Assembly: GCA_050012255.1 (NCBI GenBank) | Contig: JBEKHN010000001.1 | Span: 288,001 to 352,000, forward strand | Source of the DNA: Candidatus Bathyarchaeia archaeon | GTDB taxonomy: Archaea > Thermoproteota > Bathyarchaeia > Bathyarchaeales > Bathycorpusculaceae | Reading direction: 5' to 3' | DNA length: 64,000 bases | Shown here: piece after piece, positions 6,286 through 24,369 of the stretch | Layout of the letters: each line of letters begins with the position of its first letter | Position numbering within the stretch: the stretch's first letter is position 1 | Notes under the pieces: model-generated | Told to the model about the DNA's origin: nothing | Database searches by the model: none | The model's input: the letters and a program-made list of their open reading frames with translations, nothing else | Position numbers and translations under genes: made by a program

Positions 6286-6359
6286 GCTTACCGTCACACA
6301 TTTATAAGTTTGCTCTCAGTGCGCGAAAATCTTAAAAACAGGCAAACGGAGTTATCTGT

Positions 6360-7866: not shown

Positions 7867-8160
7867 CACATTATCGTCAATGAAAAAACCTTTCCATTTA
7901 ACGTCACACTTTTTGCGGGGAACCTTCAACCCTGCGATCGCGCCTTCTCCTGCAAAGAGACAAAAGCACCCTAATAACAGTAGCACGCGCGCAGTGACTA
8001 CGAGTGAAACATACGAGGTCAAACTGGCATTAAACATAAAAGAAATAACTAAAATGCTACGACAAACCAAATGGGCTTACATCTGGGCAAAAAACTCAAA
8101 ATCCCTCTTTTTCTCTTCATCGATGAGCATCAACATTTGTGATGGCGTGAATTGAGTAGC

Positions 8161-8207
8161 GTGTGTTTGGGGTAAAGTTTTATCCCAAAACCCAAACCCA
8201 AACACAC
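8161..8207. repeat. Inverted repeat GTGTGTTTGGG...CCCAAACACAC with internal CCCAAA(A) repeats
   Basis: 11-bp arms read directly from the sequence. Confidence 0.6.
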
Positions 8208-8331
8208 ACAAACTGAGACACAGACAGACACGTAGCATAGAAAAAAGTCAGTCTATGATTTTGCGGAAAAGCTATAGCTGAACCGCATAGTTCAAAAAGA
8301 TTTTAGGTAGGAAAGACTGTCAATTGAATGT

Positions 8332-9000
8332 ATGAGCGACAGATTTGCAGATGTTTGGGAAAGAAGAAAGAACGTCCAATTGAATGTAACGAAATATTGG
8401 GTTGACAATGATTGGACTAAGGGAAGAAATCAATATCTGACTTTTCATGTAAGGATTAGAGATGCGGGACTGATTGAGAAGATAGTTGAGATTCAGAGTT
8501 GGCTATCCACTATTTCTTGTGTTGCCCCATTCCCCAAAGATTATTTTCACATATCTGTAGCGGAGCTTGGATTCTTGGCAAAATCAGAAGAATATGAAGA
8601 CGATATTTTGGTTGAGAACTTGCAGAGAATAATCAATCAAGCGAAAGAAGTCTTACAACAATTCAGCAAATTTGATGTATTCCTTTCTAAACTCAACATT
8701 TTCCCAGATGTTGTTTTTGTGGAGGTTCATGATGGGAACAAAATTGAAGAGATACATAGAAGACTGCAGGCAATACCCGAGATAAGAAAGAGGAAATTTG
8801 ACCATCCAAGTTTTTTGCCTCACATCAGCATAATGCATTTTCAGAAGAAAGAAGATTTCACCAGACTAATCAGCTACCTAGAAAAGCTGAGGGATACAGA
8901 GTTTGGAAAAATGACTGTTAATTCCATAGAGCTAGTGAACGCTCATTTATTCAAGAAACATCCAAAACTCAAGACCATCCATACTTTTGAGTTAAAATAA
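8332..9000 (+). CDS. 2H phosphoesterase (2'-5' RNA ligase/LigT-like)
   Basis: Two HxS motifs (FHISV, PHISI) at typical spacing. Confidence 0.85.
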   Translation: MSDRFADVWERRKNVQLNVTKYWVDNDWTKGRNQYLTFHVRIRDAGLIEKIVEIQSWLSTISCVAPFPKDYFHISVAELGFLAKSEEYEDDILVENLQRIINQAKEVLQQFSKFDVFLSKLNIFPDVVFVEVHDGNKIEEIHRRLQAIPEIRKRKFDHPSFLPHISIMHFQKKEDFTRLISYLEKLRDTEFGKMTVNSIELVNAHLFKKHPKLKTIHTFELK

Positions 9001-9280
9001 CAGCTTAATTGGGGAGCCTCAAACTTGTTGGAAATATACGAAGAACTGGGTGTTGTAAAATACACAGAAAAAGCAAAGGGAACTGCTTCCGAGTAAATGG
9101 GAAAAAACTGTAGAATTATCCTCTGTCGGTCCTTTTAAACCAGTTTGACCTTTCTTTTCTCAGAAGAAAACGGTCATGTGAAGACGGACTTCGGGAGAAC
9201 TCCCACACTTCTTGTGGTTTCGTGCAAAAACTGATATACCTGAACCATATAGGGAGTGTGATCAAGAAGTGGCAGTAGAA

Positions 9281-10639
9281 ATGAGCGTCGAACAGTTTTT
9301 GGAGTCGGTGACGAATCCCCTCACTAGGAAGGAGTATCGTCATGGACTCAAGAAGTGGGTAGAATACTATGGCAAAACGGCTGAACAAACGCTGCAGGAG
9401 AGAAAAGACGACCTCACTCAGAGAGCTAACGAAAACCTGATTGACTACAAGAACAGGGCTGCAAGGTTTGAGAAGGAGATAGAGAAATTTCACGGATGGA
9501 TGCGAGAGCATGGCTCTGCAATCAACTCAGCGAGAACCCTGACTCTAGGAATAAGACAGCTTTTCTCATACTATCAGATGCCTGTCACTCTGAGGAACGG
9601 ATCCAAAGCAACCAAGACAGAGAAGACCACACGTAGCTTTCCTTTGGCAATCGAACACGACAGGAAAATGTTTGCAGTGGCAGACTTGAGAGAAAGAGTC
9701 ATCCTGAGTATGGCAACGGATCTAGGGCTAAGGATGGAAGACTTCATTTCTCTCAAGAAGGCTGATCTGCCTGACTTGTCTCAGGAAGCTCCAATCAGCT
9801 TTGACATCATGACAAGCAAAGAGAATGTTGTGGCACATGGCTTCCTGAGTGCTGAGTCTCTGGAATTGCTGAAGACCTACCTGCAAACAATGGAGCAAAA
9901 GGCAGAGAAGAAGACTCAAGAGAAGGGAGAGAAGTATGATAACCCCTTCCTTTTTGCTTCCAACGGAGAAAGCCATATCTCAGACGAAACGGTGAATCGG
10001 ATCCTGAAAGGTTTGGCAGAGAAAGCAAAGATACCTCTGAACGGCAAAGACCTGAGCTTTCATTGCTTCCGCAAAATGTTTTTGGCTGCCTCTGTTGACT
10101 CAGGAGCAGGGCTAGTGGCAGGGAAGATCATCTGTGGAAAGAGTGTCCCTCAGTCTGACGACACGTATCTAGGCACTGTGAATCTCAGGGAGAAGTTCAA
10201 GACCATAAAGAAGTTCCTGACCATCACCGAAACGACCAACAAGGAAGAGGTAAACAAGATTGAGGACTTGAAGGCTGCAGTGGTCAGGCTTCAAGAGCAG
10301 CTCTCGACACAGCAGGTCATAACACAGACAATCCAACAGCAGAACGACAAACTGAAGTCCTTGACCGTCTTGGCAGACTACCTTTCAAGTCTCGACAGCA
10401 CAGGAGAAATACAGACCTATTTCATGGACTTGGACTCTGCTAAAGGCCACATGAAAGGAGTCTACGTCGGAAAGGTGGAAGGACAGACCTCACAACTCGT
10501 TGACAAGGCCATACATATGACAGTCAAAAGGCACAAGAGAGAATATGACAAAGGCGAGACTGCTAAAGCAATTCGCTCCGTAGACTCTGCTTTAAAAGAG
10601 CATAGGAAAACTGCAAAGGCTTCCAAGGCAGAAGCCTGA
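9281..10639 (+). CDS. Tyrosine recombinase/integrase with C-terminal coiled coil
   Basis: GLRMEDF (R), TSKEN (K), FHCFRK (HxxR), ICGKSV...DTYL (Y); N-terminal core-binding helices. Confidence 0.9.
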   Translation: MSVEQFLESVTNPLTRKEYRHGLKKWVEYYGKTAEQTLQERKDDLTQRANENLIDYKNRAARFEKEIEKFHGWMREHGSAINSARTLTLGIRQLFSYYQMPVTLRNGSKATKTEKTTRSFPLAIEHDRKMFAVADLRERVILSMATDLGLRMEDFISLKKADLPDLSQEAPISFDIMTSKENVVAHGFLSAESLELLKTYLQTMEQKAEKKTQEKGEKYDNPFLFASNGESHISDETVNRILKGLAEKAKIPLNGKDLSFHCFRKMFLAASVDSGAGLVAGKIICGKSVPQSDDTYLGTVNLREKFKTIKKFLTITETTNKEEVNKIEDLKAAVVRLQEQLSTQQVITQTIQQQNDKLKSLTVLADYLSSLDSTGEIQTYFMDLDSAKGHMKGVYVGKVEGQTSQLVDKAIHMTVKRHKREYDKGETAKAIRSVDSALKEHRKTAKASKAEA

Positions 10640-10641
10640 AC

Positions 10642-10908
10642 CTATTTCCTTCTTTTTCTCTGTCGTCTGTCTATTTCCGACTGAGTGCCCAGAACCAAGT
10701 TCTTCCAACTGTTTCTGAAGATGTGGAGATTGGGTTTCTTGTCAAAAATAGCTGCTGCCACATCAATCTGTCTCTTTTGAATAGCCTCTCTCAACTTCCT
10801 TTGCTTTTCTCTCTGAAATTCACGATATTGCCGTTTGTATTCAGTCCCAAACCTTTTGTGATACTCTTTCAGGTATGCCTTCTGCTTTTCTTTATCTTTG
10901 AATGGCAT
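10642..10908 (-). CDS. Small basic hypothetical protein (MGE type)
   Basis: MPFKDKEKQKAYLKEYHKR N-terminus resembles small viral/plasmid basic proteins. Confidence 0.6.
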   Translation of the reverse strand: MPFKDKEKQKAYLKEYHKRFGTEYKRQYREFQREKQRKLREAIQKRQIDVAAAIFDKKPNLHIFRNSWKNLVLGTQSEIDRRQRKRRK

Positions 10909-11031
10909 GATCGATCACAATCGCATTCTTATTGAACAAGTATTTTACTCACTTAGTTTATCTGTCCAAAACCGTTATATATCTCTTATGCTTAAAGGTT
11001 TTTCTGTCTAAAACTTAAGGAGAAGGGTGTA

Positions 11032-11826
11032 GTGGCTGACAAACCTGAGCTGAAGGGTTATCAGGGATTTCAGGATACTCTCAAGGCCAAAGCCTATGAG
11101 TGGCTCAGGCAGCATCTCCACGAAAAACCCAGGGGAAAGATCGTCAAATTAGCATCATTTCTTGGCATAGACTACAAGGCAAACAAGCAATATCTTTGGC
11201 AGATCAGCAGTGACTTCAAAACTGATGTCAGAAATAGGCAAGGGCTAAAACCCCCAAATTGGCATAATTGGCTTGGCAGGATTAAGGCATTTGAGGGTTT
11301 GAGTAGAGAGGAAGCTGTTAAGAAGGATTGGGTTCAGACCAAAGCCAAGAATCATTATTTGTTGTTTGTCGATCCTAGAGGGCTTGGTAGGCTTGAGTGG
11401 CATATTGATGGCACTGTCAAGGTTTGGGTGAAGAAGCCTGTTTCCGATGCGAAGAAGCTGCAGCTTTTGGCTGATGCCTTCTTCAATACTTATCTGATCA
11501 CTGACATCAAGGTTTTCACTGAATGGGCTAAGACTCTGAGGCAGAAAGGTGAAGATTGTGCTGTCCATGTGGGCTTTGATGTGTCTTACTTCAAGATTGA
11601 CTTGTTCCAAGAGTCCAATGGCATCACGATTGTTGGTGGTGACAAGTCTCACAGAGATTGCATAGAGGCTAGGCTCCGAGTGCCTGAGTGGGCAGAGGAA
11701 TACAGAGAGAAAGCAGACTTCATCATTCAGGGCTACAAGACGATGATTGAGCAAATCAGCAAGCCCTTGCAGGACTTGTCAGCTCCCAAGCCTAAACTTG
11801 CACAGGACAGGGAGATGGTTGTTTGA
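11032..11826 (+). CDS. Uncharacterised MGE protein
   Basis: 264-aa ORF with upstream TATA-like and purine-rich RBS-like sequences; LGRLEW, SNGITI and GDKSH motifs. Confidence 0.75.
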   Translation: MADKPELKGYQGFQDTLKAKAYEWLRQHLHEKPRGKIVKLASFLGIDYKANKQYLWQISSDFKTDVRNRQGLKPPNWHNWLGRIKAFEGLSREEAVKKDWVQTKAKNHYLLFVDPRGLGRLEWHIDGTVKVWVKKPVSDAKKLQLLADAFFNTYLITDIKVFTEWAKTLRQKGEDCAVHVGFDVSYFKIDLFQESNGITIVGGDKSHRDCIEARLRVPEWAEEYREKADFIIQGYKTMIEQISKPLQDLSAPKPKLAQDREMVV

Positions 11827-11880
11827 TGGAGCAGACGACTGAGAGAAAGCGAGAGCCTGCTCAGGTGTCAAGCATTGAAG

Positions 11881-12012
11881 ATGGCTGATGTGATGCGAGA
11901 CGGAGAGAAGGAACTTGCTGAGTTGTTAGTTCCACAACCTGATAGGCTTCAGAAAGTAGATGAGGTTCTTAGGTGGATTGAGGAACAGGAGAAGAAGGAG
12001 AAGAGAAAGTGA
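11881..12012 (+). CDS. 43-aa hypothetical protein
   Basis: MADVMRDGEKELAELLVPQPDRLQKVDEVLRWIEEQEKKEKRK; GTGA overlap with the next ORF. Confidence 0.4.
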   Translation: MADVMRDGEKELAELLVPQPDRLQKVDEVLRWIEEQEKKEKRK

Positions 12013-12223
12013 CAGGGCTTCTTGACCCTTTTCGGAATTGGAGAAACAAAAGGAAATGGCATGAGTATGTTGATGAGGAAAGTCTCAGGATGCTTTTTGA
12101 ATATCAGTGCCTTATTATTCAACGGAAGATCCTGATGCCCGACCTACAGAAAGCCAGCATGTGTCTGAATGGACATTCTAGGATGATTTTGTATGTTCCT
12201 TGGAAGCATGGAAAGGATATGCT

Positions 12224-12499
12224 ATGACCATCAAGAGGCATGCCCACTTTTCTGAGAAATTCTCAATCAGCAATTGGGAGAAGGTAGGCAACCTGAAGGT
12301 TATGACGCTTCTATCTGTGTCATCAAGAGGCAACAGTCTGTGCATCATTGTTCCCAAAGACCTTGTGGACATTAACGGCATCATTTCAGGTGACAGGATC
12401 AGGGTTTGGTTCCTAGACCACTACCGTAAGAAGAGGGAAGACTCTTCTGAACCTAGCAGGACAGACGACAAAACAGGGTTCACTGAGGAAAGAGAGTGA
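12224..12499 (+). CDS. AbrB/MazE-like DNA-binding protein
   Basis: SVSSRGNSLCIIVPKDLVDINGIISGDRIRV swapped-hairpin motif. Confidence 0.7.
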   Translation: MTIKRHAHFSEKFSISNWEKVGNLKVMTLLSVSSRGNSLCIIVPKDLVDINGIISGDRIRVWFLDHYRKKREDSSEPSRTDDKTGFTEERE

Positions 12500-12675
12500 A
12501 GAGAAGTTACAGACTGCCTAGAGGAGATCTCTCAGAGGAACAGAGCTCATGAGCTGAGTCAAGAAGAGCGTCTTAGGCAGGTTGAGCAAGTGCTGAAGAA
12601 AATAGAAAGTCTGAGAGTTTTTGAAAGGGCAGAACCTAGCTGCTGCCATCATACTTTTTGACTTGCAGGAGTCAT

Positions 12676-13542
12676 TCACAACACATCTGCCAACGGTTGC
12701 AGGAGTGCGTCGGCGTAGTCTCTCCATGAAAGATGCGAGTAAACATCAATGTTGGAGCTGACCTTTTGACCGCGTGATTGCTCTTCATTCTTTATGCTCC
12801 ATCCTGTGAACGCACATACTTGAATGGGCTGAAACCGATAGTTCATTCTCAAGTGATCACATCTCCAATGCCTCAAAACGTGCGGATGAACCTTCTTGAT
12901 TTTCGGGTCAAGCTGCATGATGTCTGACAGGTTCTTGCGAACTACGATTTGGAAGTTTTCTTCACACATATCGAAGCTGAGCTTTGCCTTGCCGTTCTGC
13001 AGTTTGTTTTCGTTCCGCATCTTCTGCACCCATTTCGCAATATCGTAACTCCAAGGCTCTATTCTCGGATCCATAGGAATGCCCACGTCTTTTGTTGGCA
13101 CTCCAGTGTAGGTAATGGTCTGTGGAGCAGGGGAAGGGCTTGTCTGGGTCGTCTCACCTGCTTGAGCTACCTGACTGACAGGAGTTGGCTCTTCTTTCTC
13201 AATCCTCATTTTGGCAATGGCAGTTGTCACTATGAGAAGTTTCGTATCCTCTACCTTGCTGCCATCTGGGAATTCAATGTGTTTCTTCCAAGTCGCAAGC
13301 TCGTGTCGCATCATTGTTCCGTAGGGCTTGGAAAGTCCATGCTTGAGTTGATAGGGAGTTGTGCGAGTTAAGATTTCACAGGCTCTTGCTCCGAGAAGAT
13401 AGGCAAGTTTGCAGAGAACCTCGTCTCTCTGGGAAGTCCAATGGTGGTTGTCCATGTATTCTCTGAACAATCTGAAGTCAGGAGTATGGACTCTTTCTTT
13501 CTCTTTGAACACGACCTGTTGAATCGCACCCAAGTTTTCCAT
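12676..13542 (-). CDS. Divergent tyrosine recombinase (essentially catalytic domain only)
   Basis: LLGARACEIL (R), HPHVLRHWR (HxxR), FTGWS (W), DVYSHL (Y). Confidence 0.85.
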   Translation of the reverse strand: MENLGAIQQVVFKEKERVHTPDFRLFREYMDNHHWTSQRDEVLCKLAYLLGARACEILTRTTPYQLKHGLSKPYGTMMRHELATWKKHIEFPDGSKVEDTKLLIVTTAIAKMRIEKEEPTPVSQVAQAGETTQTSPSPAPQTITYTGVPTKDVGIPMDPRIEPWSYDIAKWVQKMRNENKLQNGKAKLSFDMCEENFQIVVRKNLSDIMQLDPKIKKVHPHVLRHWRCDHLRMNYRFQPIQVCAFTGWSIKNEEQSRGQKVSSNIDVYSHLSWRDYADALLQPLADVL

Positions 13543-13589
13543 GTTGAGTCGCCTACGCTCTATCTATTAGCCATTGGAGTGAAAAAGCT

Positions 13590-13617
13590 TTTTGCGATTT
13601 CCTACAAAGATCGCAAA
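13590..13617. promoter_or_regulatory. Inverted repeat TTTGCGAT...ATCGCAAA upstream of the recombinase (possible operator/binding site)
   Basis: 8-bp arms with a 12-bp spacer, about 50 bp upstream of the ATG at 13542. Confidence 0.45.
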
Positions 13618-14004
13618 GTCTATGGACAATAAAAGAGAGTCGCAAGAAAAGCTCCTCAGTTCTAGTTCGCTCTGAAAATTATGAACTAATAATCAATGCT
13701 TAGGAAATAGAAGGAATCTTCGAGCATTGGTTCAGTTCTCTGAAGAGTTCAGGCAGAGAGGCGAGTGCTAAGATAGTGTTGTGATTTTCATTCTTGGCCT
13801 GCAGTGTGTGAGGCAGTTAGCGTTGAGCTGTCAGTGAAAAGTAAGAACTTGTGGAGACGACACCGCAGATCTCAAAGAAGTCAGAAATCTTGTCGGCTGT
13901 CTGTGCAAAGTCATACTCGCTTGTTGCTAAGAGTCCTGAGTCATCTTGATACGAGACTGTGAATACAATGCTTCTGATGGCAGTGTCAGGCAACACGCGC
14001 GCGC

Positions 14005-14459
14005 TAGGCCAAGGATACTCCGGTAACATAACTGTAACAGCTGAAAACCTAGGCGGCTACACTGAAACCTTCAACATCACAGCATACGCCAACACAACCA
14101 TCATAGCATCAGAAAGCGTTACCTTACCAGCCGGCAACTCTACGACAGTCACGTTCGTTTGGAACAGTACTGGCTTTGCTTACGGCAATTACACCATAAG
14201 CGCTTATGCTCTGCCTGTACTAGGCGAGACAAACACGGCGAACAACAATTTCACAGGCGGCGTGGTGACAGTTACTTTTCCAGGCGACGTCAACGGCGAC
14301 GGCACTGTTGACATCTATGACGCCATACTGCTATCTGGCGCCTTCGGTTCCAGTCCAGGCAGTCCAAAGTGGAACCCCAACGCAGACCTAAACAACGACG
14401 GCATCGTAGACATCTACGACGCAATCATACTCGCAGGCAACTATGCAAGAACAGCCTAG
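14005..14459 (+). pseudogene. 5'-truncated CARDB + dockerin surface protein
   Basis: GQGYSGNITVTAENLGGYTETFNIT (CARDB) and GDVNGDGTVDIYDA...ADLNNDGIVDIYDA (dockerin); no signal peptide; begins at a GC palindrome. Confidence 0.8.
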
Positions 14460-14621
14460 TGTTTGCCCTTGACTTGTTCTATTCATTTATTTAGTAGCGC
14501 ACGCGGGCCAAAGTGGATTTCTTCAAAATTTAGGTATTTCACTAGTTTATGACGTTACAGAGGGGAAGTTGGCCTGGACAACAAGCGCGAGGAGCTAGGA
14601 CGCCGTTTAAGCCGGTTCTAT

Positions 14622-15162
14622 TTGCGTGACTGCGAGAGAAGTCGCAGTGTACTCCAGCCATCGATCTTGATTTTTATAATTGCATTTGCAGTTGTGGTCC
14701 TGCCTTCACATTCTATTGCAGAAGTGGACTGGTGGTCGACGTTTCATCATGATCCGTTACATACTGGCTATTCGACTTCGGCAGTTCCATCTACGAATAG
14801 AACCATTTGGAACTTCACGACTGGCAGCGTGCTGGAATCTTGTCCCGCAATCGTCGGCGACGAACTGTTTTTCGGTTCTGGCGACGGCAACTTCTACGCA
14901 TTAAACGCTTCAACCGATACTCAGATATGGAACTATGCGACAGGAGGCGTATTGTTTCCTCCCCAGCATTCTTCAATGATATGGTCTTCTTCGGTTCAGG
15001 AGATGCGAACGTCTATGCTTTAGACTGTTCAAGTGGAAGTCTTCTGTGGAACTATAGAACCGCACGCAGAGTTATCTCATCTCCAACGTTTTCCGACGGT
15101 GTTGTCTACGTCGGCTCCTATGACCATAATGTCTATGCTCTGAACGCTTCACGGGCGCGCGC
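14622..15162 (+). pseudogene. PQQ-like beta-propeller (BamB-like) surface protein, frameshifted and 3'-truncated
   Basis: Signal peptide, WWSTFHHDPLHTGYS, repeats SSPA..VFFGSGD.NVYAL; frameshift near 14947; ends at GCGCGCGC. Confidence 0.8.
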
Positions 15163-15291
15163 ATCTTTGAATATGGACCGTCGCTATTCGATGCATGAAT
15201 CTTAAATTCTCACTAGTCGCCCGTTTCCGACTATGCACCAGTTTAATGCATTAAACGCGGTGCGCGATAGTGTTTCGCGCGCGAGTGCAAT

Positions 15292-16557
15292 CTACAACGT
15301 AGTTGTGTGAACTCCATTGGAATGATCACGGGATTGATTCAGTGCTTCTTGTGTTAGGACTTCTTCGGGGTCCAGTTCCCATATGCGGATGATTCTTATT
15401 AGGTCGACTATTTTGCTGGCTTTGGTCCTTGGTTGTATGCTGAGGCCAGATGCTACGTAGATTCCTCGCAGGAAATCGACCCCTTTCATCTTGACGTCGT
15501 GGTAGACGCTCAAGGTGTGACCCATCATGTACTCGACGTAGTCGCGTTCTGTGCCCGTTGAGATCATTTGAGTTAGGAAGAATTTTCGGAGGCTGTGAGC
15601 CGTTAGATCGTATCTTTTGATTTTTGGGGTCCTAGTCAATACACCGGCTCTGACGTAGAGCGTGTTGACTATATCCTGAATTGTCGCCGCGTCTAAAGGT
15701 TTGATCCCACGATAACTGCTGATCAAAGGCGATTCGTCATCGAGACGCTCTCGTGGTCCTATTTTCCCGTTTTTCCGGGCGTCTAGGTAGGCTTTTAGGT
15801 ATTCTGAAGCCTCGCTGTTTAGAAAAGTGTCGTAACCATGGTGTTTACCCTTTGTTATTTCTGGTTCAACGTGAACGTGGATGGGAATTGTTCCTTTTTC
15901 TAGGTCTTGTTTAACGTGGCGATATTTGAGTTGAACTAGGGTTCCGTTTCGAAATCCGCCGACCGCCATCAGAGCGATTATGACCTTACCGCGGATGTCT
16001 GCTACCTTCAAGGTCTTCTGGAGTTCATCAGGTGTGGGTGCACGTTCCTCGTAAATGCTCCATTTGGATCTCCGACAGGGTTTATTGAATCTTACTCCGT
16101 TAAGTTGGAAGAAGAACTGTATCCCTTTTGCCATGTTGTAGACCGTGGCTGGGGCCATGCCTTTCTCTTCTTGCAGATTGTCGGCGAAGTCTGCGAGGAG
16201 ACGCTCCATTTGAATGACGACCTTAGGTATTGGAACTTGATCCTTTCCTTTGCAGTCGTTCAGAAGCTCATCGGGACTTTTTTGTAGCCATCTGCTGAAG
16301 CGATATATGTCATATATCTGATTGCGAAGCGTGTGCAGACTGCCTGTTCGGTGACGTAACAGATGTTTCGCGACCTCTATGGTTGTGGAGTTTTCGAAGG
16401 TGAATGGCGCCAACTTAGGATGCCATCTAATGAAGGTGTTTATAACATATTGGCGAAGTTTTCTGTCGGCTACACTTTCTGTTTCAGGGATCTCGAGGGT
16501 GAAAGGCTGTTTAAGTCTGCGTCCACTGGGGCCCCTGGTTATGGTAAGGGATTTCAT
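15292..16557 (-). CDS. Tyrosine recombinase (second of tandem pair)
   Basis: GFRNGTL, KGK, AHSLRKFF, MMGH, VYHD: complete R-K-H-R-H-Y set. Confidence 0.92.
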   Translation of the reverse strand: MKSLTITRGPSGRRLKQPFTLEIPETESVADRKLRQYVINTFIRWHPKLAPFTFENSTTIEVAKHLLRHRTGSLHTLRNQIYDIYRFSRWLQKSPDELLNDCKGKDQVPIPKVVIQMERLLADFADNLQEEKGMAPATVYNMAKGIQFFFQLNGVRFNKPCRRSKWSIYEERAPTPDELQKTLKVADIRGKVIIALMAVGGFRNGTLVQLKYRHVKQDLEKGTIPIHVHVEPEITKGKHHGYDTFLNSEASEYLKAYLDARKNGKIGPRERLDDESPLISSYRGIKPLDAATIQDIVNTLYVRAGVLTRTPKIKRYDLTAHSLRKFFLTQMISTGTERDYVEYMMGHTLSVYHDVKMKGVDFLRGIYVASGLSIQPRTKASKIVDLIRIIRIWELDPEEVLTQEALNQSRDHSNGVHTTTL

Positions 16558-17909
16558 TCATACGCACCCGTTGACTCTGGCAGAGAACCACTCCGCTGAT
16601 AATTTTGCGAAGCCTTTGATGAGATTAGAGTATCTCTATTATCGGCTTGCTCCTGCTTTGTAGTCGGAGTGATTTGCGTCAGGGCTTCACGGGTGAGGAT
16701 TTTCTGCGGGTTTAGCCCCCACGTTTGAAGTATTTCTTTCAAGGCATCGATTTTGTTCATTTTGATTCTCGGTCTTATGCGTATTCCGGATGTCGTGTAC
16801 ACGCCGCGTAGATATTCGACACCCTTCATCCTAACATCATGGTATCGATCTTTCACTGCGCGGCCCATCATGAAATCAATGCAGTCTGGATCAACTTCAA
16901 GCGAGGCCATTTGGGTTCGGAAAAACCTCCTGAAGCTGTGGGTTCTCAATTCATATCTTCTGCGCAAAGAATTCTTTTCTAGTAAGCCGGTTCTAACATA
17001 GAGATTGTGAATCATCTGGTGAACCGTCGTAACAGCCACCGTTTTAACTTGTTTGCAGCGGCACGTCCTGATCAAAGGTGATTCATCCCGTATTTGCTCT
17101 GGCGGAATTTTCTTTGTGCCTATTTTGCGAGCTTTAAAGTAGGCTCTAAGGCACTCTGATGCTTCATCGTTCAAGAAAGTGTCGTAACTGCGCCGTTTGC
17201 CCTTTATCAGTTCCGACTCGACGTGAATGTGAATTGGGATGATGTCTCGTTCAAGGTCATCCTTCACGTGTCGATACTGAAGTCTTAGAAGGGTGCCTAC
17301 GCGGAGGCCGCTGACTGCCAACGTTGTGATTATGACTCTTTCACGAAGGTCTGCCAAATCTAGAATCTTTATGAGCTCCTCGCGTGAAGGGGCTCGCTCA
17401 TTGTACAAATTCCAAACGCTCAACCCGTAGGGTAATCTAAGTCCTACGCCATTGATACGGAAGACGCTTGTGATGTTTTTCAAGCGACTCCTTATAGTGG
17501 TCGGCGATAGGTTCTTTGCTTGCAGTTGGTCAATGTATTCGTCAAGTGCGCTTGTCATCCTAGCTATTCCTTTTGGGTTGGCATCTCCATTCGACTTTCG
17601 GCACCTGCTCATAAGCTGGTCAGGCTCGGCCTTAATCCATCTGCAGAAACAATTGAAGTCGTCAACGTATTCGTAAAGAGTGAACTGGCTCCCTGTTCTG
17701 TTGAATAGCAGATGTCTCGCAACCTCCATTGTGGAGAAGTTCTTGAGAGTAAAAGGTATTAGAGGGGACCTTCTGCTCAACGATTCCCAAATGTACCGTA
17801 AGAGTTTCTTTTCTGCCCCATTCTGTCTTTCTGGGACTCTTAGCGTCAACGGTTTCTTGAACCTCCCGCCACGAACCCCTCTTTCTATGACTAAGGTTTT
17901 GTATTTCAT
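16554..17909 (-). CDS. Tyrosine recombinase (first of tandem pair)
   Basis: GLRVGTL, KGK, THSFRRFF, MMGR, RYHD; start chosen at MKYKTL by alignment to the partner; ATGA overlap. Confidence 0.9.
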   Translation of the reverse strand: MKYKTLVIERGVRGGRFKKPLTLRVPERQNGAEKKLLRYIWESLSRRSPLIPFTLKNFSTMEVARHLLFNRTGSQFTLYEYVDDFNCFCRWIKAEPDQLMSRCRKSNGDANPKGIARMTSALDEYIDQLQAKNLSPTTIRSRLKNITSVFRINGVGLRLPYGLSVWNLYNERAPSREELIKILDLADLRERVIITTLAVSGLRVGTLLRLQYRHVKDDLERDIIPIHIHVESELIKGKRRSYDTFLNDEASECLRAYFKARKIGTKKIPPEQIRDESPLIRTCRCKQVKTVAVTTVHQMIHNLYVRTGLLEKNSLRRRYELRTHSFRRFFRTQMASLEVDPDCIDFMMGRAVKDRYHDVRMKGVEYLRGVYTTSGIRIRPRIKMNKIDALKEILQTWGLNPQKILTREALTQITPTTKQEQADNRDTLISSKASQNYQRSGSLPESTGAYE

Positions 17910-18066
17910 TTCCACAATTCTCCGATTCTCAGAATCTTCGGACTTCAGATTTAAAAAACCATGGTTGGCGCCGAACATTAACATAACTCGAAAACAGCTA
18001 TTTCCTCCGACTTCCGAACACAAATTCAAATGCGCGCGCTAAGTTTGTTTAGAGGCTCCCCCTGAG

Positions 18067-18092
18067 TACGCGCGCGCTAAGAATTTTGTCAA
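18067..18092 (-). pseudogene. Stub of a DUF5615 PIN-like toxin (TTG ACA AAA TTC TTA GC = MTKFLA) cut at a GC palindrome
   Basis: TTG overlaps the DUF433 stop; DUF433 partners typically begin MKFLADEN. Confidence 0.5.
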
Positions 18093-18322
18093 GGAAGCGG
18101 GTAGACCTTCTCTTCTTTCAAGATTTCAGTTGCGTACTTCAAGACTACAGTTATGTCTTCTTTTTTGAGCTGCGGATAATTCTCCAGTATTGTTTCAGCT
18201 GTCCAGCCGTTGGCGAGAAGGTCCAAGATGAATTCAACGGATATTCTGGCGCCCTTTATTACTGGTTTTCCAGCTAGTACGTTTGGGTTCAGTGTTATTC
18301 TGTTTCTCCACTCGTCCATCAC
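18089..18322 (-). CDS. DUF433 antitoxin
   Basis: RITLNPNVLAGKPVIKGARISVEFILDLLANGWTAETILENYPQLKKEDI. Confidence 0.92.
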   Translation of the reverse strand: MMDEWRNRITLNPNVLAGKPVIKGARISVEFILDLLANGWTAETILENYPQLKKEDITVVLKYATEILKEEKVYPLP

Positions 18323-18478
18323 TTGATCACCGATGTACTGGTTAAGTGCAGAGGTTATATGTCTTCTTGATGTTCTTGGTATGCGTGTGCTCCAGCGCTC
18401 GCGGTTTTTGAAAAAAAAATATTTTTTTGTGTACGTTGAGGCCTAACTTAGATTCTCTTTGGATGGTGTTTCATGGGG

Positions 18479-18673
18479 TCATCTTGAGACGTTCGAATTC
18501 AGTCTTGTTTGCGAAGCCCTAGCGCGCTCTCTCCTTTTCAACCTTGAAACCCAACCCCCGAGAGCTTCTTCCGCAGCCTTGCTCAATGCTCCCTTTCCAT
18601 AGCTGAACCTCTTCATTGCGAGTTTCCTGAACCTGCGCTCAAGCTTTTGGCTAACGTGAACCCTCAAGGACAT
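18479..18673 (-). CDS. RHH antitoxin-like protein, probably 3'-truncated
   Basis: LRVHVSQKLERRFRKLAMKRFSYGKGALSKAAEEAL; frame passes through AGCGCGCTAG at 18519-18528. Confidence 0.6.
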   Translation of the reverse strand: MSLRVHVSQKLERRFRKLAMKRFSYGKGALSKAAEEALGGWVSRLKRRERARASQTRLNSNVSR

Positions 18674-18863
18674 GCTTGTTACCTAATTATCTTAGTGTCA
18701 AAACTCCACATATCCTTTTTCACCATGCTTTTATGCTTAGCCCATTCCAGTGTCCATGTGCATTCTTGTTCGACAGCTACACAATAAGATTTATTAAGAT
18801 ATCAGATATTCCCTCACTAGACATTCACAGACAAACCTAACTCTAAGCTTAGGAGAGCAACAC

Positions 18864-20828
18864 TTGAAAGGCCCCAATCGTCGCGGAAGATTCCTCTCAG
18901 TAATGAAGGCAAGCACCTTCTGGATTCTCACAGCTCTAGCCGCCCTGACTCTTGTCTCATCAGTGATCACGCGCAACGCCTACGGCGCATCGGCGGGGCT
19001 TGAGAACCTTCCAGGACCGTTTGTTTCTCCCAACGGAACTTTGAACTGCACGGTTGTTGTTGCTTCGAGTGTTGGGCATGGTCCTTGTGGCGGTGCGCAC
19101 ACGATGGACGTGATGGGCGCGATACTCGTAGGGGGCGAATTGGGCTTGAAAACCAACAACGGCAACGGCACATTGGAGGCAACAATGGACGACTACATTT
19201 CAACCTACAACTTCACTACTGCGACAGTTCAGCTTGGGGATCTTTCGTCAAATCTGATTGTGATCGGTGGCCCAGGTGTCAACCAGATAACGTGGTACTA
19301 CAACAACCTGAGGAACAGTAGCGGGGACAGAGTGTTACCTGTTTACTTCGGCAAGTTTCCCAACGGAACCGACTACATCTACGTAGTTGCTACTAACCAT
19401 TCCTACGCAATCGAACGCGACGGCCTGGGCAGGGTAGTAGCTGACTATGGTGTCATTTTGATGTTTCAGGACGGGAGTCGCTTTGTGCTTATCCTCGCCG
19501 GACTAGGCGGATCTGGCACCGCGGCTGCCTGCCAAATCATCTCGTCGTATGACAGTTGGAACCTTCACGGAGGCGCGGCGATCGTGAAGTACAGCGACAC
19601 GAACGGTGACGGATTGCTGGACACTCTTTCAGTCGTGGAAGAGACTTCTGGATCAATAAACTTGTATAATGTGGCTAACATCATGTCGTTCGGACTATTT
19701 TCGGCCGTGCTGCTGCCTAAATTGAAGGCTCTAGGGCGCAGGTTTCCATCCAAGCGTCGACTGTCGAGGCTTTTGATTGTGCTCTTCTTGTTGGCGGTAT
19801 CGCAGATCGCATTAATCGCTTTCTCAGATAGCTCGAGCCCTGATTTCTACACATTCAAGGAATTCTCACATCCATTCGTTTCCTCTGGTGGTTTGATGAA
19901 CTGCACCGCTGTTGTTGCTTCGAGTGTTGGGCATGGTCCTTGTGGCGGTGCGCACACGATGGACGTGATGGGCGCCATCATGGTCGGCGCTCGGTTCGGG
20001 ATGGATGCAACCGGAGGATCTTTGGCTTCAACTCTAGACGATTATATTTCATCCTACGATATCAACACGGGACAAATGAACTTCTCTTCTCTGACAAGCA
20101 ACCTCCTGGTCGTTGGCGGCCCAGGTGTCAACCAGATAACGTGGTACTACAACAACCTGAGGAACAGTAGCGGGGACAGAGTGTTACCTGTTTACTTCGG
20201 CAAGTTTCTTAACGGAACCGACTACATCTACGTGCCTTCAAGTGGTCACTACTACACGGTTGAGTATGACGCCTTAGGAAGAGTGAGTGCAGATTACGGA
20301 GTGGTAACCCTTTTTTACGACTCCACCCACGGCTGGTGGGTGCTGATTGCTGCAGGTCTAGGAGGAGCAGGGACCCTTGCGGCATCGAGTCTGCTGGCAA
20401 ACTATAGGAGTTGGAGCCTTTTTGGCCAGGCTGTTGTGGTCAAATATTCCGACACTAACGGAGACGGTTACCTGGACACCATAAGCCTTCCAGAGTTCGT
20501 GGGGGTTGGAAATAGTATAGACGTTTTCTGGGATTCTAATTGCCAAAACGCAGTTCAATCAATAGCGTGGGGAACTCTCACTCCAGGAGACACGAAGAGC
20601 GTGATAGTATATGTCAGGAATGAAGGGCAAGGAGGCACTGTTCTTGGCTTCAATCTCTCTGGCTGGACTCCGCTGACGGCTTCAAACTACCTGAGCATAG
20701 GATGGAACTATTCAGGAACCGTCGTCCAGTCTGGACAAATTGTGCCTGTCATGTTCACGTTGACAGTGAACTCGAGCGTTACAGGTGTTACTGACTTCGG
20801 AGTTAACATCACCATTAGTTCTGGTTGA
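18864..20828 (+). CDS. S-layer-like membrane protein with two duplicated extracellular domains
   Basis: Signal peptide; NLIVIGGPGVNQIT and ILAGLGGSGT motifs occur twice; two central hydrophobic segments. Confidence 0.75.
   Translation: MKGPNRRGRFLSVMKASTFWILTALAALTLVSSVITRNAYGASAGLENLPGPFVSPNGTLNCTVVVASSVGHGPCGGAHTMDVMGAILVGGELGLKTNNGNGTLEATMDDYISTYNFTTATVQLGDLSSNLIVIGGPGVNQITWYYNNLRNSSGDRVLPVYFGKFPNGTDYIYVVATNHSYAIERDGLGRVVADYGVILMFQDGSRFVLILAGLGGSGTAAACQIISSYDSWNLHGGAAIVKYSDTNGDGLLDTLSVVEETSGSINLYNVANIMSFGLFSAVLLPKLKALGRRFPSKRRLSRLLIVLFLLAVSQIALIAFSDSSSPDFYTFKEFSHPFVSSGGLMNCTAVVASSVGHGPCGGAHTMDVMGAIMVGARFGMDATGGSLASTLDDYISSYDINTGQMNFSSLTSNLLVVGGPGVNQITWYYNNLRNSSGDRVLPVYFGKFLNGTDYIYVPSSGHYYTVEYDALGRVSADYGVVTLFYDSTHGWWVLIAAGLGGAGTLAASSLLANYRSWSLFGQAVVVKYSDTNGDGYLDTISLPEFVGVGNSIDVFWDSNCQNAVQSIAWGTLTPGDTKSVIVYVRNEGQGGTVLGFNLSGWTPLTASNYLSIGWNYSGTVVQSGQIVPVMFTLTVNSSVTGVTDFGVNITISSG
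19055..20233 (+). repeat. Intragenic near-identical repeats: 19055-19120 = 19910-19975 (66 bp, exact); 19269-19384 ~ 20118-20233 (116 bp, 2 mismatches)
   Basis: Direct comparison of the sequence. Confidence 0.9.
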
Positions 20829-20919
20829 TACGCGTTAGAATTGGTATCATGATTCGTGATACATAATATTTAATACTCTTCTAGATGGAAAACGCTAGTG
20901 AACAGAGAGAACCTGCGGC

Positions 20920-22269
20920 TTGATTCACATGTTTCAACTGCGTCGATTGGCAATTAACATTCCAAAACGAGGCTATTTTGTGGCAGGATTGCTGCTTCGA
21001 CTGGTTCTAGCGCCCTTCCTGAGTCATCCATTTGATATGAGAGTCTTCATGGCGGTCGGTGTCGCCGTGTCTAGAGGGATGACTCCTTACGGTCAGTATG
21101 TCCTTCAAGACTTGTTCGCCGCAACGCCACATGTTCATCTCTATGGGACGTTTCAAGGCATAGGATACCCGCCACTTTGGGGTCTGATGAGCGGTGGCAT
21201 GTACATGCTGTCTTCAATCTTTGCTCCGAACAACCTGTATGCATACGTTCTTGCCCTGAAGCTTCCTGTAATAGTGGGAGAGTTGGCACTCGCCGTCTTA
21301 GTCTACAACATTCTGAAGACTCAGACCAACGACAAGATTGCCACGGCGGCCTTTCTCTTGTTCATCTTCTGCCCTTTCATAATGGTTGTGGGCACCGTTT
21401 GGGGCATGTTTGATGTCATTGCACTCGTTTTCGCTCTACTGTCTGCTTACGTTCTTCAACACGATTGGAAACTGTCTTCAGTTTTCTTGTCATTATCTTC
21501 TCTCCTCAAGCTCTTTCCCCTTGTCCTCGCCCCATTGTACTCCATTTTTCTCTACAAATCCACCAGGAGCCTGAAGCTTGCTGTCAGTTTCCTCGTATCC
21601 ACTGTTGCTATCACCGCTGTTTTCACACTTCTTCCGATGATCTTGTTCAATTGGCCAATTTCCAATATGTACAACGCTCTCACTTATCAATTAACGACAA
21701 CCAATCCTTCATATGACAACGCCGCCTCTTTTCCCTACGGGGCTGCGAGTCCGTTCAACGTTTTCACTCTTCTAAACAATCTGGCACGCAGCAGCATACA
21801 ACCGCTCGCGCTGTTGGTCTACATCTGGATCCCGGCATGCGTTGCGGTCTACATACTTCTTCTCCGTTCTCAGATGTCTGTTACGGTTAAGGAAGTGGGC
21901 GTAAGCACGGATTTTGCCATGATTGTGCAGTGGTCGCTGCTTCTTTTTCTAGCGTTGTTCACTACGCGGGCTTGGGTTTCTGAACAGAACCTCATCTTTC
22001 TTTTTGTCTTCTTCTCCCTAAGCGTTTTTCTACAGTATCGTAGGGAGTTGTACAAAGTACAACTGTTATGGGTGCTTCTGTTCATTTTTGTGCTGGTTCA
22101 TGTTGCCGCGATATCCTTCTTGTGGCTTCCGTTGCCTTGGACACTCAACGCAGCCAGCGCCTTCGCCGACGGCCCATTCGGATGGACTAGACTGCTTCTT
22201 ATGACTGTGTTAACCTTCAGTTGGCTTGCTCTGTGCTGGCACTACGTTGCCAAGAAATTGAGGTGGTAG
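20920..22269 (+). CDS. Multi-pass GT-C glycosyltransferase (GT87/PIG-M-like)
   Basis: HPFD, GYPPLW, LKLP, WGMFD and LLKLFP motifs; many TM helices. Confidence 0.75.
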   Translation: MIHMFQLRRLAINIPKRGYFVAGLLLRLVLAPFLSHPFDMRVFMAVGVAVSRGMTPYGQYVLQDLFAATPHVHLYGTFQGIGYPPLWGLMSGGMYMLSSIFAPNNLYAYVLALKLPVIVGELALAVLVYNILKTQTNDKIATAAFLLFIFCPFIMVVGTVWGMFDVIALVFALLSAYVLQHDWKLSSVFLSLSSLLKLFPLVLAPLYSIFLYKSTRSLKLAVSFLVSTVAITAVFTLLPMILFNWPISNMYNALTYQLTTTNPSYDNAASFPYGAASPFNVFTLLNNLARSSIQPLALLVYIWIPACVAVYILLLRSQMSVTVKEVGVSTDFAMIVQWSLLLFLALFTTRAWVSEQNLIFLFVFFSLSVFLQYRRELYKVQLLWVLLFIFVLVHVAAISFLWLPLPWTLNAASAFADGPFGWTRLLLMTVLTFSWLALCWHYVAKKLRW

Positions 22270-23426
22270 TGACGAGGGCCTTAACGCTTCTTTTGCATGA
22301 TGAGCGTTTCAGCGGATGGACGCCGAAAGACAAGCTTGTTCGCCAGCACTTTTCAACGCAGTATCTGCGCTTTTACAGGCAAAAAGGCGCAGACCCGATG
22401 CTATACACTTTTCACGAGCATGTCAAGTCTATTCAGGTTCACGAGCTGGATCGCGTAGGCTTGGTCAAGATTTTCCCTGTGAAGTTCCGCTTTCCGCCGT
22501 TTCTACGTTTCGGCAACGATCATAATCCAGAGTCTATAATGCGAGAAATGCTTCGTGACAAGCCAGATCTGGTGCACTTCCACCACTATTATCTGTTCTC
22601 GTTCCCTTACTTGGCCATATTTGTCAAGAAAAGGTTGAGACGACCTTTAATCGTACAACTTCACGGAGTCAACGACAATTGCACTCGAAAATGGTTCTAT
22701 CTACCATGTCTATTGGCGCTAAAGAACGCTGATAGGGTTCTCTACAGCTATGAGCCTGAGAAGCTCATCTACGAGAAGCTAGGGATTACGGATAAAGTTG
22801 TCAAGCTGCCTTTTCCAGGTGTTGATCCTGAAGTCTTCAAACCGCAGAAACGGTGCAGTTCGAATAGGTTACTTTATGTTGGAAGAATCCCAGATGCCGA
22901 AGCTGCTAGGGGTGAAAAGTCTCCATTTCTGCTAATTCGCATTTTTAAGAGACTGCTGCGACATGATAAGAATGTCTTGTTGGACATAGTAGGAGATGGC
23001 CCTGGTCTCTTTCGCAGTCGCGAGCTGGCCCAAAGTCTAGGGGTAGCTGACCGCATATCTTTCCACGGCTATGTTGATCACGATGATTTGCCCAAGTACT
23101 ATCATGCTTCAGCGTTGACTTTCTCTCCTATTCAGCTCTACGATGTCGATGGATGGATTGATGGTTCAATACAAGAGAGCCTTGCTTGTGGCACGCCAGT
23201 TGTAGCGCTAAGGGCATCAGCCAAAGCACGGCTGCGAGGAAAGTACGGGTTTCTGCTTTCGAACAACACAGAGAAAGCAGCCGAGGAACTTCACGGACTT
23301 TTGAAGGCTCCTGAAGAAATGAACCAAGTTGCGAGTGACGCGTCAAAGTTTGTGCGTGAAAACTGTTCCTGTGACCGAGTCGTCTCGGAATTAGATAGAG
23401 CGTTGGAGGGTGTGGTCAGAAATTGA
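22269..23426 (+). CDS. Glycosyltransferase family 4
   Basis: LLYVGRI, IVGDGP, ESLACGTPVV. Confidence 0.88.
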   Translation: MTRALTLLLHDERFSGWTPKDKLVRQHFSTQYLRFYRQKGADPMLYTFHEHVKSIQVHELDRVGLVKIFPVKFRFPPFLRFGNDHNPESIMREMLRDKPDLVHFHHYYLFSFPYLAIFVKKRLRRPLIVQLHGVNDNCTRKWFYLPCLLALKNADRVLYSYEPEKLIYEKLGITDKVVKLPFPGVDPEVFKPQKRCSSNRLLYVGRIPDAEAARGEKSPFLLIRIFKRLLRHDKNVLLDIVGDGPGLFRSRELAQSLGVADRISFHGYVDHDDLPKYYHASALTFSPIQLYDVDGWIDGSIQESLACGTPVVALRASAKARLRGKYGFLLSNNTEKAAEELHGLLKAPEEMNQVASDASKFVRENCSCDRVVSELDRALEGVVRN

Positions 23427-24343
23427 AGTTGAGCATAGCTGTTTGTGCTTATAACGAAGAAAAATCGATCGGGCCTTTGCTGCAGAACCTGATGGGTCAA
23501 AGAACCCCGGCTGAGGTTACTGATCGTGAAATCATAGTTGTAGCGTCAGGATGCACGGACAGAACTGTCGAAGTTGTCAAAGAACACATGAAGACTAATA
23601 CGAAGATTGTTCTCATTGAGGAGGAGAACAGGTTGGGAAAGGCGTCGGCGTTGAACAAGGCTTTTGAGGCTTCGTCCGGTGACTACATCGCCTTGGTTCC
23701 AGCAGATGTTATGCTTGCTGAGGGTGCCATGTTTAACCTGCTTGTTCCGTTCAGAGACAGCAGTGTGTCGGCGGTGAGCGGTCGTCCGATGCAGAATCCT
23801 TGGAAAGTGCCCAAGGGTTTTTCGGGCTACTTGGCCAAGATGACGTATAGGCTTTGGTCTAGGTTGATGAGGAGGCTAAATGATAGTGGTGAGATGGCTC
23901 ACTGCAGTGGCGAATTCATGGCTATAAGAAGCGGCGTCAAAACGGTCATCCCTGATGAATGTGCTGCCGACGATTCTTACATCGCCATCGCTGCCAAGAA
24001 AAAAGGTGTGATAAAGTTTGCTCCCAAAGCCGTCTGCTACAACCTTCTACCTTCGAACCTTGCGGATTACATAAACCAAAGAAGAAGATGGCTATACGGC
24101 CATTTTCAGACGAAGAAGATGACGGGCGAATATCCGACGGTGCTGGATACGATGGTCTTGTCAAAGCCCGGTGTCACTCTGCGAGTACTCGCTGAAGAGG
24201 TAGCTGAGCAGCCAAAGGACACGGGTTACTTAGCAACCGCCGTCATTGTCGAAGCGATCATATATCTGCTTTCCCTCTTAGACCGTCTGCTCTGTCGTCA
24301 ATGTGGCGTTTGGCCCGTAATCAGATCAACGAAGCCCGTTTAG
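23423..24343 (+). CDS. Glycosyltransferase family 2
   Basis: IAVCAYNEE, SGCTDRT, GKASALN, ADD, QRRRW. Confidence 0.9.
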   Translation: MKLSIAVCAYNEEKSIGPLLQNLMGQRTPAEVTDREIIVVASGCTDRTVEVVKEHMKTNTKIVLIEEENRLGKASALNKAFEASSGDYIALVPADVMLAEGAMFNLLVPFRDSSVSAVSGRPMQNPWKVPKGFSGYLAKMTYRLWSRLMRRLNDSGEMAHCSGEFMAIRSGVKTVIPDECAADDSYIAIAAKKKGVIKFAPKAVCYNLLPSNLADYINQRRRWLYGHFQTKKMTGEYPTVLDTMVLSKPGVTLRVLAEEVAEQPKDTGYLATAVIVEAIIYLLSLLDRLLCRQCGVWPVIRSTKPV

Positions 24344-24369
24344 ACTCGAAAGGTAATGGAGAGATCTGG

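Follow-up and report, generated by a model that had tools for sequence, protein, structure and literature searches.

What do two adjacent, related tyrosine recombinase genes do in an archaeal chromosome, and is the GC palindrome that brackets them the site on which they act? The question is raised by a stretch of 64,000 nucleotides from a Candidatus Bathyarchaeia archaeon (GenBank assembly GCA_050012255.1, contig JBEKHN010000001.1, positions 288,001 to 352,000), here called the window, whose minus strand carries two such genes, A and B. A first-pass annotation proposed that they form a self-mobile unit or a heterodimeric recombinase, and that they are the prime candidate for the enzyme behind the palindrome. 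By comparing the window with the rest of its genome (G000), with related genomes and with loci from metagenome and viral collections, we find that the A-B pair is probably a two-gene integrative element of about 2.7–3.1 kb, or the autonomous core of one; its proposed part in the palindrome system largely fell away. The features on which the argument rests are as follows (positions are those of the window).

16554..17909, minus strand: recombinase A, the upstream paralog, 451 amino acids (aa) from the ATG giving MKYKTL; PF00589 29.8 bits, PF16795 28.9 bits
15292..16557, minus strand: recombinase B, the downstream paralog, 421 aa; PF00589 50.8 bits
16554..16557, minus strand: ATGA overlap of the A stop codon and the B start codon (the plus strand reads tcat)
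17910..17977, minus strand: conserved operon leader, with TATA-like TTTTTTAAA at 17950-17958 and a GGAG ribosome-binding site at 17920-23
15275..15284, no strand: palindrome TCGCGCGCGA, 7 bp past the B stop
15155..15176, no strand: (GC)4 tract and adjoining bases, reading inward GCGCGCGCATCTTTGAAT; the tract proper is 15155-15162
18020..18039, no strand: (GC)4 tract and adjoining bases at the outer left end of the segment, reading inward GCGCGCGCATTTGAAT

The two open reading frames (ORFs), their ATGA overlap and the motif positions stood up to inspection, with GCGCGCGC at 18032-18039, 122 bp upstream of the A start. That start is the ATG named above; the mechanical ORF of A extends to 18029. 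A and B share 46% identity over 411 aa (E 2e-127), and the Pro/Ser/Gln-rich C-terminal tail of A overlaps the start of B. The leader is conserved between copies of the pair as TATA-like TTTTTAAAT followed by a GGAGG ribosome-binding site, and is presumably the promoter of an A-B operon.

Both proteins belong to the tyrosine recombinase superfamily by profile, by catalytic residues (with R350 of A in place of the last His) and by their fold of a core-binding (CB) and a catalytic (CAT) domain, and both exceed the curated PF00589 cut-off of 27.1 bits. The catalytic signature of B is complete (R203, K236, H321-x-x-R324, H347, Y352), and R203, K236, R324 and Y352 are invariant across 84 family sequences. 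An AlphaFold2 model of B (predicted local distance difference test, pLDDT, 89.5; predicted template modelling score, pTM, 0.77) comprises an N-terminal beta-hairpin (2-23) and helix (29-43), the core-binding domain, the catalytic domain and further helices (379-416) after the Tyr helix. Foldseek matched it to XerA, lambda Int, IntI, Tn1549 Int and Cre with E values of 5e-9 to 1e-4. The N-terminal domain may bind arm-type sites. A large protein collection yields 271 relatives of B at E ≤ 1e-3 and 436 of A at E ≤ 1e-60; those with names are labelled 'integrase' or 'XerD'. Two conserved blocks, N-terminal K.L.I.RG..G.R.K.P.TL and C-terminal WGL.P..LT.EAL, had been pointed out as shared by the pair, the N-terminal one as an unusual extension. 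They are indeed present in both A and B, but since single-gene relatives also carry both, they are traits of the whole family.

A and B arose from a single old tandem duplication in a Bathyarchaeia/Thermoproteota family of integrases of 420–500 aa, from which we collected 217 proteins (36 A-type, 43 B-type and 138 singles). In an IQ-TREE quick search on 67 rows (16 of 83 were left out as duplicates or as shorter than 380 aa), the 14 A-type rows form one clade (SH-aLRT 100) and the 18 B-type rows another (99). The two clades are sisters (100), lie nested among single-gene relatives and show matching sub-groupings within; distant members of the family (≤ 56% identity) are single genes. The duplicates have been inherited together. 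An A-type gene lies upstream of B in all 19 B-type metagenome loci that have at least 300 bp of upstream DNA, a count that excludes 7 B-type rows cut by a contig end and includes loci that are not all independent (L038 is the DNA of the window, L048 and L049 are near-identical, L042 and L044 are 99% alike). The three B-type loci in the viral collection also have A, 3/3. The genes directly abut in 17/19 loci, and the junction of all 14 intact abutting pairs is either a 4-bp overlap (9) or a 2-nt spacer (5). Departures from this arrangement include an IS200/IS605 element (TnpA + TnpB) inserted exactly between A and B (L047, 4534-5948), a pair with both genes frameshifted and 2.5 kb inserted (L053, 2146-7239) and a single chimeric gene with an A-like N-terminus and a B-like C-terminus (L054, 1717-3117). 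The ratio of nonsynonymous to synonymous substitutions (dN/dS) among orthologs ranges over 0.154-0.352 in A and 0.159-0.325 in B (28 pairs each), and purifying selection thus acts on both. From the strict co-occurrence, the conserved translational coupling, the selection on both genes and the congruent trees we infer that A and B plausibly act jointly, as a heteromeric recombinase. A prediction of the A+B complex scored 0.09 against a mark of 0.32, which we count neither for nor against pairing.

The two active sites have diverged in the way first described, B reading MMGH and A reading MMGR at 8-9 residues before the presumed nucleophile Tyr (YHDV). A retains R203, K236/K238, H324-x-x-R327 and Y356, with R350 at the family His position, and it has one additional residue ahead of the Tyr (KDRYHD), as do all readable A-type proteins. 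Across the family, the position is Arg in 29/35 readable A-type proteins and His in the other 6/35 (1 unreadable), and is His in 39/39 readable B-type proteins (4 unreadable) and 126/126 readable singles (12 unreadable). This pattern, the inserted residue and the identity between the second pair of this genome and its counterpart in G007 (A 74% vs B 89-93% at the aa level) could be taken to mean that B is the working integrase and A a catalytically weakened regulator, architectural or directionality factor. However, A keeps Arg-I, Lys, HxxR and the Tyr nucleophile, so that it appears diverged and not visibly dead; its dN/dS is no higher than that of B, and six A-type proteins have the His. We therefore consider a purely accessory role for A very unlikely.

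The pair is found at variable loci and in more than one copy. This genome has a second pair, split over the end of contig C6 and the start of contig C7: A' (C6:107833-109185) is 70% identical to A in aa sequence and its last base serves as the first of B', and B' runs from C6:109185 for its N-terminus to C7:3-836 for its C-terminus, which is 76% identical to B. A further A 5' end stands at the start of C32, and two single genes of the family (C6:4514-5746 and C8:36956-38125) are each 43-48% identical to A and B. Elsewhere in the genus, a copy in G004 (84% nucleotide identity, with internal stop codons) and one in G007 (75%) both have flanks unrelated to those in the window. Pairs thus occur in 3/11 genomes of the genus (G000, G007 and, degraded, G004), and a family match in 15/41 relatives. 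Across 17 loci, nucleotide similarity runs only from 48-134 bp upstream of the A start to 0-37 bp past the B stop, and no cargo gene common to all pair lineages was found. The window is mosaic in all genus-mates from position 1 to 18743, and its synteny with G007 covers only 18743-26020, so no empty site can be defined for the window copy. We regard this copy (~15155-18039) as a diverged member lying in a mosaic, non-syntenic island, with putative ends.

Some further observations concern possible target sites and units. A 25-mer with only two copies in the genome, identical to each other (G000:C6:4346-4370 and G000:C8:38250-38274), lies 125-170 bp past the stop of each single gene in the same orientation, and may be a shared attachment site. 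No tRNA target was found in the window or adjoining any pair. In L042 and L044 a tRNA-like 3' half with the GGTTCAAATCC T-loop motif lies ~80-135 bp past the B stop (L044 5200-5255); ARAGORN makes no tRNA call on it, and it does not repeat the tRNA-Gly gene 4 kb away. Metagenome contigs of 2.4-2.8 kb were considered as circular or collapsed units and rejected, as they begin inside gene A. In public sequencing runs, one of them perhaps from the source sample, depth over the pair equals that of its flanks, a figure with no bearing on excision or expression.

The nearest curated family to A and B is archaeal XerA (NCBIfam NF040815) and the nearest solved structure is XerA 5HXY, while no gene of this genome attains the XerA cut-off. 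The pair has large secreted beta-propeller/dockerin genes on its flanks in the window, L047, L048 and G004. The pair could on these grounds be a domesticated two-subunit Xer-like system for dimer resolution, or a host switch that inverts or shuffles neighbouring surface-protein genes. Yet B scores only 68.6 bits and A 45 bits against a cut-off of 220. The distribution across the genus is patchy, with one of its three pair-bearing genomes degraded, and this genome alone has at least two pairs and two singles, which is not the conserved single-copy presence of a Xer-type housekeeping gene. Copies are pseudogenised, flanks are not conserved, and no significant inverted repeats surround the neighbouring genes. 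We consider such a host function extremely improbable. In bacteria, XerC and XerD are paired paralogs that act as a heterotetramer on dif. A and B are like them in being two paralogous tyrosine recombinases kept together, in their CB+CAT fold class and in the proposed split of labour on an asymmetric site. They differ in their patchy, multi-copy and decaying occurrence at variable loci, in being adjacent and overlapping, and in their extra N-terminal domain and C-terminal helices; Xer is described as a near-universal, single-copy housekeeping system (PMC8138268). Archaeal XerA (PDB 5HXY, 4A8E) is the best match in sequence and fold, and B shares its R..K..HxxR..H..Y signature, but A and B are 130-170 aa longer and are paired rather than single.

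The clearest picture of how the pair may move comes from locus L126, an IMG/VR contig whose pair is 96.5% and 94.8% identical to the second pair of this genome. Here the pair is flanked by a 161-bp direct repeat of 87% identity with a start-to-start spacing of 3106 bp (z = 97 vs shuffles; none of the other loci exceeds 2.8). The first repeat copy is formed by the 3' end of a 486-aa ABC-ATPase/GNAT gene. The second, 158 bp downstream of the B stop, is fused to the beginning of a small ORF and closes with a stop codon of its own. A 36-bp core is identical in both, and between them lie the two recombinase genes only. The same gene end is also found upstream of A in G000:C6, G000:C32 and G007:C7. 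Pair-free versions of the gene exist as well: the G001 ortholog (86.6% nucleotide identity over 2.1 kb, upstream neighbour conserved) has no pair, and G007:C6 holds another pair-free copy. Occupied and unoccupied sequences diverge at ...TTCTGGCAAAAAGAA(G/A)AG, in the stop region of the gene, and at occupied sites the reading frame continues a few codons into element DNA. L126 would thereby fit the picture of an integrase element that enters a gene end and supplies a surrogate end. The idea of a two-gene mobile unit is supported by these findings together: unrelated loci, multiple and decaying copies, a 3.1-kb repeat-flanked segment with the pair as its sole content, and a target gene free of the pair in G001.

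The same loci bear on a reading in which the pair is an integrase module at the edge of larger islands (defence, plasmid or provirus) beside a conserved gene, with L126 a stripped remnant. In the lineage of the second pair, G001, G007 and L126 have a conserved left flank. The DNA past B differs in L126, G000:C7 and G007; encoded in it are a type II restriction enzyme, C5-methylases, Vsr, an HhH-GPD glycosylase and a Dam-like methylase. Three pair contigs are filed as viral in IMG/VR, and the window pair shares its 18.7-kb mosaic stretch with two other integrase-like genes. On the other hand, capsid, terminase and replication hallmarks are absent from the 25 flanking ORFs scanned, there is no second repeat copy farther out in G000 or G007, close copies have only the ~2.7-kb operon in common, and the L126 repeats hold the pair alone. 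On balance an edge module is possible but unlikely.

Several points nevertheless weigh against the two-gene integrative element that we favour. Flanking direct repeats are seen in only 1/14 loci tested, the window copy and 12 other loci having none. The second pair of G000 and the pair of G007 have the left repeat copy and no right copy. G001 matches L126 on the left side only, so there is no two-sided empty site, those of G001 and G007:C6 being one-sided. The right-hand flanks of L126, G000 and G007 differ and carry restriction-modification and repair genes; the restriction-modification genes adjoining the pair, together with the three viral contigs, leave room for the edge module. Around the window pair, a search for att-like repeats gave only the (GC)4 tracts and an inverted repeat of low significance (z 2.8). 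The contigs of the public runs, the only data covered there, are free of joints and gave no sign of an excised or circular form. A (GC)n tract lies ≤ 130 bp upstream of the A start in 5/13 pair loci and ≤ 130 bp past the B stop in 6/13, loci that are not independent of one another, against backgrounds of 12% and 13%, and tracts fall exactly at four breakpoints near pairs. With His in 6/35 A-type proteins, the MMGR change is no defining mark of A. Lastly, that A and B bind each other, and that both are needed, are themselves suggestions drawn from sequence comparison.

If the pair is a two-gene integrative element, A and B would form a translationally coupled operon with its own promoter, yielding both proteins in fixed proportion. 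On an asymmetric core site the two would come together as a mixed tetramer, with a canonical active site from B and a diverged one (mostly His to Arg) from A, and this tetramer would carry out recombination between a site on the element and one in the chromosome. For the lineage of the second copy, the chromosomal site would be the 3' end of the ABC-ATPase/GNAT gene. As the element would carry a look-alike of that gene end, integration would leave the direct repeat of ~160 bp. The crossover position, and any present-day activity of the element, are likewise read from the sequences and should be taken as probable at most.

Mobile elements moved by adjacent tyrosine recombinase genes are known from bacteria. 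Tn554 requires TnpA as well as TnpB for its transposition. PMC8138268 describes RIT and Tn554 subgroups of tyrosine recombinases. Compared by description, both are bacterial and have a third gene (ritA, ritB and ritC in RIT; tnpC in Tn554), whereas the unit at every A-B locus has only two recombinase genes, sister to each other, and no conserved third gene. L126 is also like integrases that target gene 3' ends, such as tRNA-targeting phage integrases and those associated with dusA (PMC4482086), in its gene-end repeat and in a gene kept open by an end that the element supplies. It differs from them in its two recombinases, the lack of cargo between the repeats and the ABC-ATPase/GNAT target. 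Like the integrases of SSV- and pNOB8-type, A and B would be archaeal mobile-element integrases, and A touches PF16795 (28.9 bits, cut-off 27), but the match spans only 41 residues and the genes are intact when integrated. The SSV type is marked by R..KxxR..Y and by an attP within the int gene. By the definitions in PMC8371274, the SSV type has KxxR and the pNOB8 type YxxR; with HxxR, the A/B family is neither. An integron integrase is not indicated either, as no IntI model was among the NCBIfam matches at E ≤ 0.01, no repeat array lies beside the pair and the fold resembles IntI (2a3v) no more closely than it does other recombinases.

Paired or triple DNA-moving tyrosine recombinases have been reported for bacteria in Xer, Tn554, RIT, GInt (PMC5385486) and SE (PMC10214605). 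An archaeal pair is described neither in the passages covered here of a 2021 review of archaeal tyrosine recombinases (PMC8371274, with its section 8; its supplementary tables may list A or B) nor in the further literature searched. In the literature covered (PMC8371274, PMC8138268, PMC10848311 and, on archaeal integrons, 10.1101/2022.02.06.479319), paired recombinase elements had hitherto been described in bacteria, and the A-B pair is archaeal. Should the proposed element be real, its 3 kb with nothing but two recombinases that co-evolve would make a very small, tractable system. It would bear on the origin of heteromeric recombinases from a homomeric ancestor, on the effect of a His-to-Arg change at the active site, and on how Bathyarchaeia genomes rearrange. 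To our knowledge, no genetic tools exist for Bathyarchaeia.

We also considered whether the palindrome belongs to the pair. The GCGCGCGC motif occurs 17 times in the window (0.51 expected) and 434 times in the 2.35-Mb genome, with 349/434 copies (80%) outside long ORFs, a fraction that makes up ~19% of the DNA by a crude ORF map. Tracts of (GC)≥3 lie in 102/433 divergent, 96/362 convergent and 175/869 tandem intergenic regions, a share of 20-26%. In this genome, a tract lies at most 130 bp before the start of about 12% of genes and at most 130 bp after the stop of 13%. As the motif is intergenic genome-wide, the bracketing of one operon is only mildly unusual. Nor is the bracketing conserved: the tracts nearest to the second pair are 9457 bp away on the upstream side and 226 bp away on the downstream side. 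The motif characterises the genus, whose other members (10/10) have 29-464 copies; among the 41 related genomes counted, those outside the genus exceed ten copies only in G024 (227), G030 (53), G019 (30), G039 (19) and G012 (14). As side observations, (GC)3-5 palindromes are enriched within 25 bp after stop codons, and (GC)n tracts come and go as small replacements in homologous DNA, for example at L126 9296-9306 vs G000:C7 ~900.

Were the pair the recombinase of this palindrome system, the tracts would be crossover sites that move the pair, cassettes and small repeats. Besides the proximity counts given above, tracts found exactly at several breakpoints near pairs speak for this. L048 and L050 differ by a 3.9-kb indel with GCGCGC at one end and (GC)5 at the other, and the truncated ABC-GNAT fragment at C32 begins at (GC)5. 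In the window, similarity to the L041 and L042 copies begins directly after the tract at 18032-18039, and similarity of a flanking beta-propeller pseudogene to its homologues ends at 15152, directly at the tract at 15155. The tracts at 15155 and 18039 bear the weak inverted repeat GCGCGCGCAT(CT)TTGAAT, the GCGCGCGCATCTTTGAAT end being an imperfect inverted repeat of 18020-18039 with a z of only 2.8. The TCGCGCGCGA site lies within the stretch alignable to L041, where it is degenerate (TTCGCGTATGA).

The distribution of pair and motif, however, largely refutes a palindrome recombinase. Presence of the pair does not track motif density: the only match in the motif-rich G001 (464 copies, one contig, 97% complete) is an integrase of 28% identity, and G009 (359) and G008 (254) have no family match at E ≤ 1e-10. 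Conversely, the family-bearing genomes outside the genus have 1-14 tracts (G012 14, G016 7, G032 6, G040 1). Five of the 13 pair loci (L041, L042, L051, L052 and L057) have no tract in the fetched DNA, up to 13 kb, and no tract is near the second pair or either single-gene paralog of this genome. The ends of L126 are the gene-end repeat, and GCGCGC forms the termini of an IS5-like DDE transposon and of small repeats related to it. By the annotation's own yardstick, that motif-rich genomes should not lack the pair and that its mobile boundaries should relate to the motif, the idea is not borne out: motif-rich genomes do lack the pair, the loci are variable but the L126 ends are unrelated to the motif, and the pair no longer stands as prime candidate for the motif system. 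We judge it highly improbable that the pair is the palindrome recombinase. The integrase-like gene at 9212-10639 was considered as the motif enzyme and rejected, being in 5/41 genomes and not in G001, G007 or G008. The breakpoints suggest that (GC)n tracts are rearrangement hot spots in the genus, whatever the enzyme. A combined reading, in which a minimal autonomous archaeal element made only of a heteromeric recombinase pair enters a gene end in one lineage and, in (GC)n-rich genomes, also uses or is moved through the palindromes as genus-wide breakpoints shared with the IS5-like transposon and MITE family, seems to us distinctly unlikely.

With the pair removed as the most obvious suspect, the question of the palindrome shifts to other processes, including the IS5-like element with GCGCGC termini. 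Window 2248-2452 is occupied by a repeat of ~204 bp resembling a miniature inverted-repeat transposable element (MITE); BLAST matches it 28 times in this genome, and G001 and G007 also hold many copies. GCGCGC forms its terminus on either side, as the start of the inverted repeats GCGCGC-ATGCTTGTTCCTAAATTC. Further MITE size classes are ~135, 155, 175 and 280 bp, and there are 118 terminal-repeat matches in G000. The same ends bound a 1.09-kb insertion sequence (IS) encoding a 341-aa DDE transposase in G003 (L142 = G003:C204, 945-2037). A degraded homologue of this transposase (PF01609 + PF05598) is found at G000:C24:15252-16329, and more degraded copies in G001; the 1.09-kb IS5-like element would be the autonomous partner of the MITEs. 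Many contigs of this assembly terminate in MITE or IS copies. Such inverted-repeat ends adjoin 73/1080 tracts. Solo (GC)n tracts were also considered as TA-flanked scars of the element or its MITEs, an origin that was rejected with TA on both sides of 34/1007 solo tracts. By these two counts, the IS5-like element accounts for a minority of tracts at best.

The remaining features around the pairs are listed here, in the window unless a locus is named.

9212..10639, plus strand: integrase-like gene, 475 aa, PF00589, present in 5/41 relatives
12676..13542, minus strand: integrase-like ORF, 288 aa, with a weak XerC-like C-terminal match and HPHVLRHW/YSHL motifs
14622..15205, plus strand: flanking PQQ-like beta-propeller gene, frameshifted and truncated (full-length relatives ~1100 aa)
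18069..18077, no strand: second upstream tract, (CG)4C, ~10 bp past the stop of the DUF433 gene
18089..18322, minus strand: flanking DUF433 gene, 77 aa, directly upstream of the pair
18479..18673, minus strand: basic ORF, 64 aa, upstream of the pair and beside the DUF433 gene
18864..20828, plus strand: S-layer-like protein, 654 aa, with two internally repeated halves (79-92% nucleotide identity, 849-855 bp apart)
L126 9721-13636, G000:C7:1754-9552 and L125 7336-14089: defence-type genes beside the pair

Among the defence-type genes are those for a complete type II restriction enzyme, an HTH-bearing C5-methylase, Vsr, an HhH-GPD glycosylase and a Dam-like methylase, which would make this a defence-island setting. 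The target gene itself (L126 5032-6492) codes for a fusion of an ABC-type ATPase and a GNAT acetyltransferase; PADLOC matches it weakly to mads, Lamassu and Septu ATPases. In the window, two further integrase-like genes lie within 6 kb of the pair, and the region from 2.6 to 18.7 kb looks like a mosaic island of mobile DNA. The DUF433 gene and the 64-aa basic ORF may be a toxin-antitoxin-like remnant, and the DUF433 gene (18089-18322) has 92% nucleotide identity to a copy at an unrelated place in G001.

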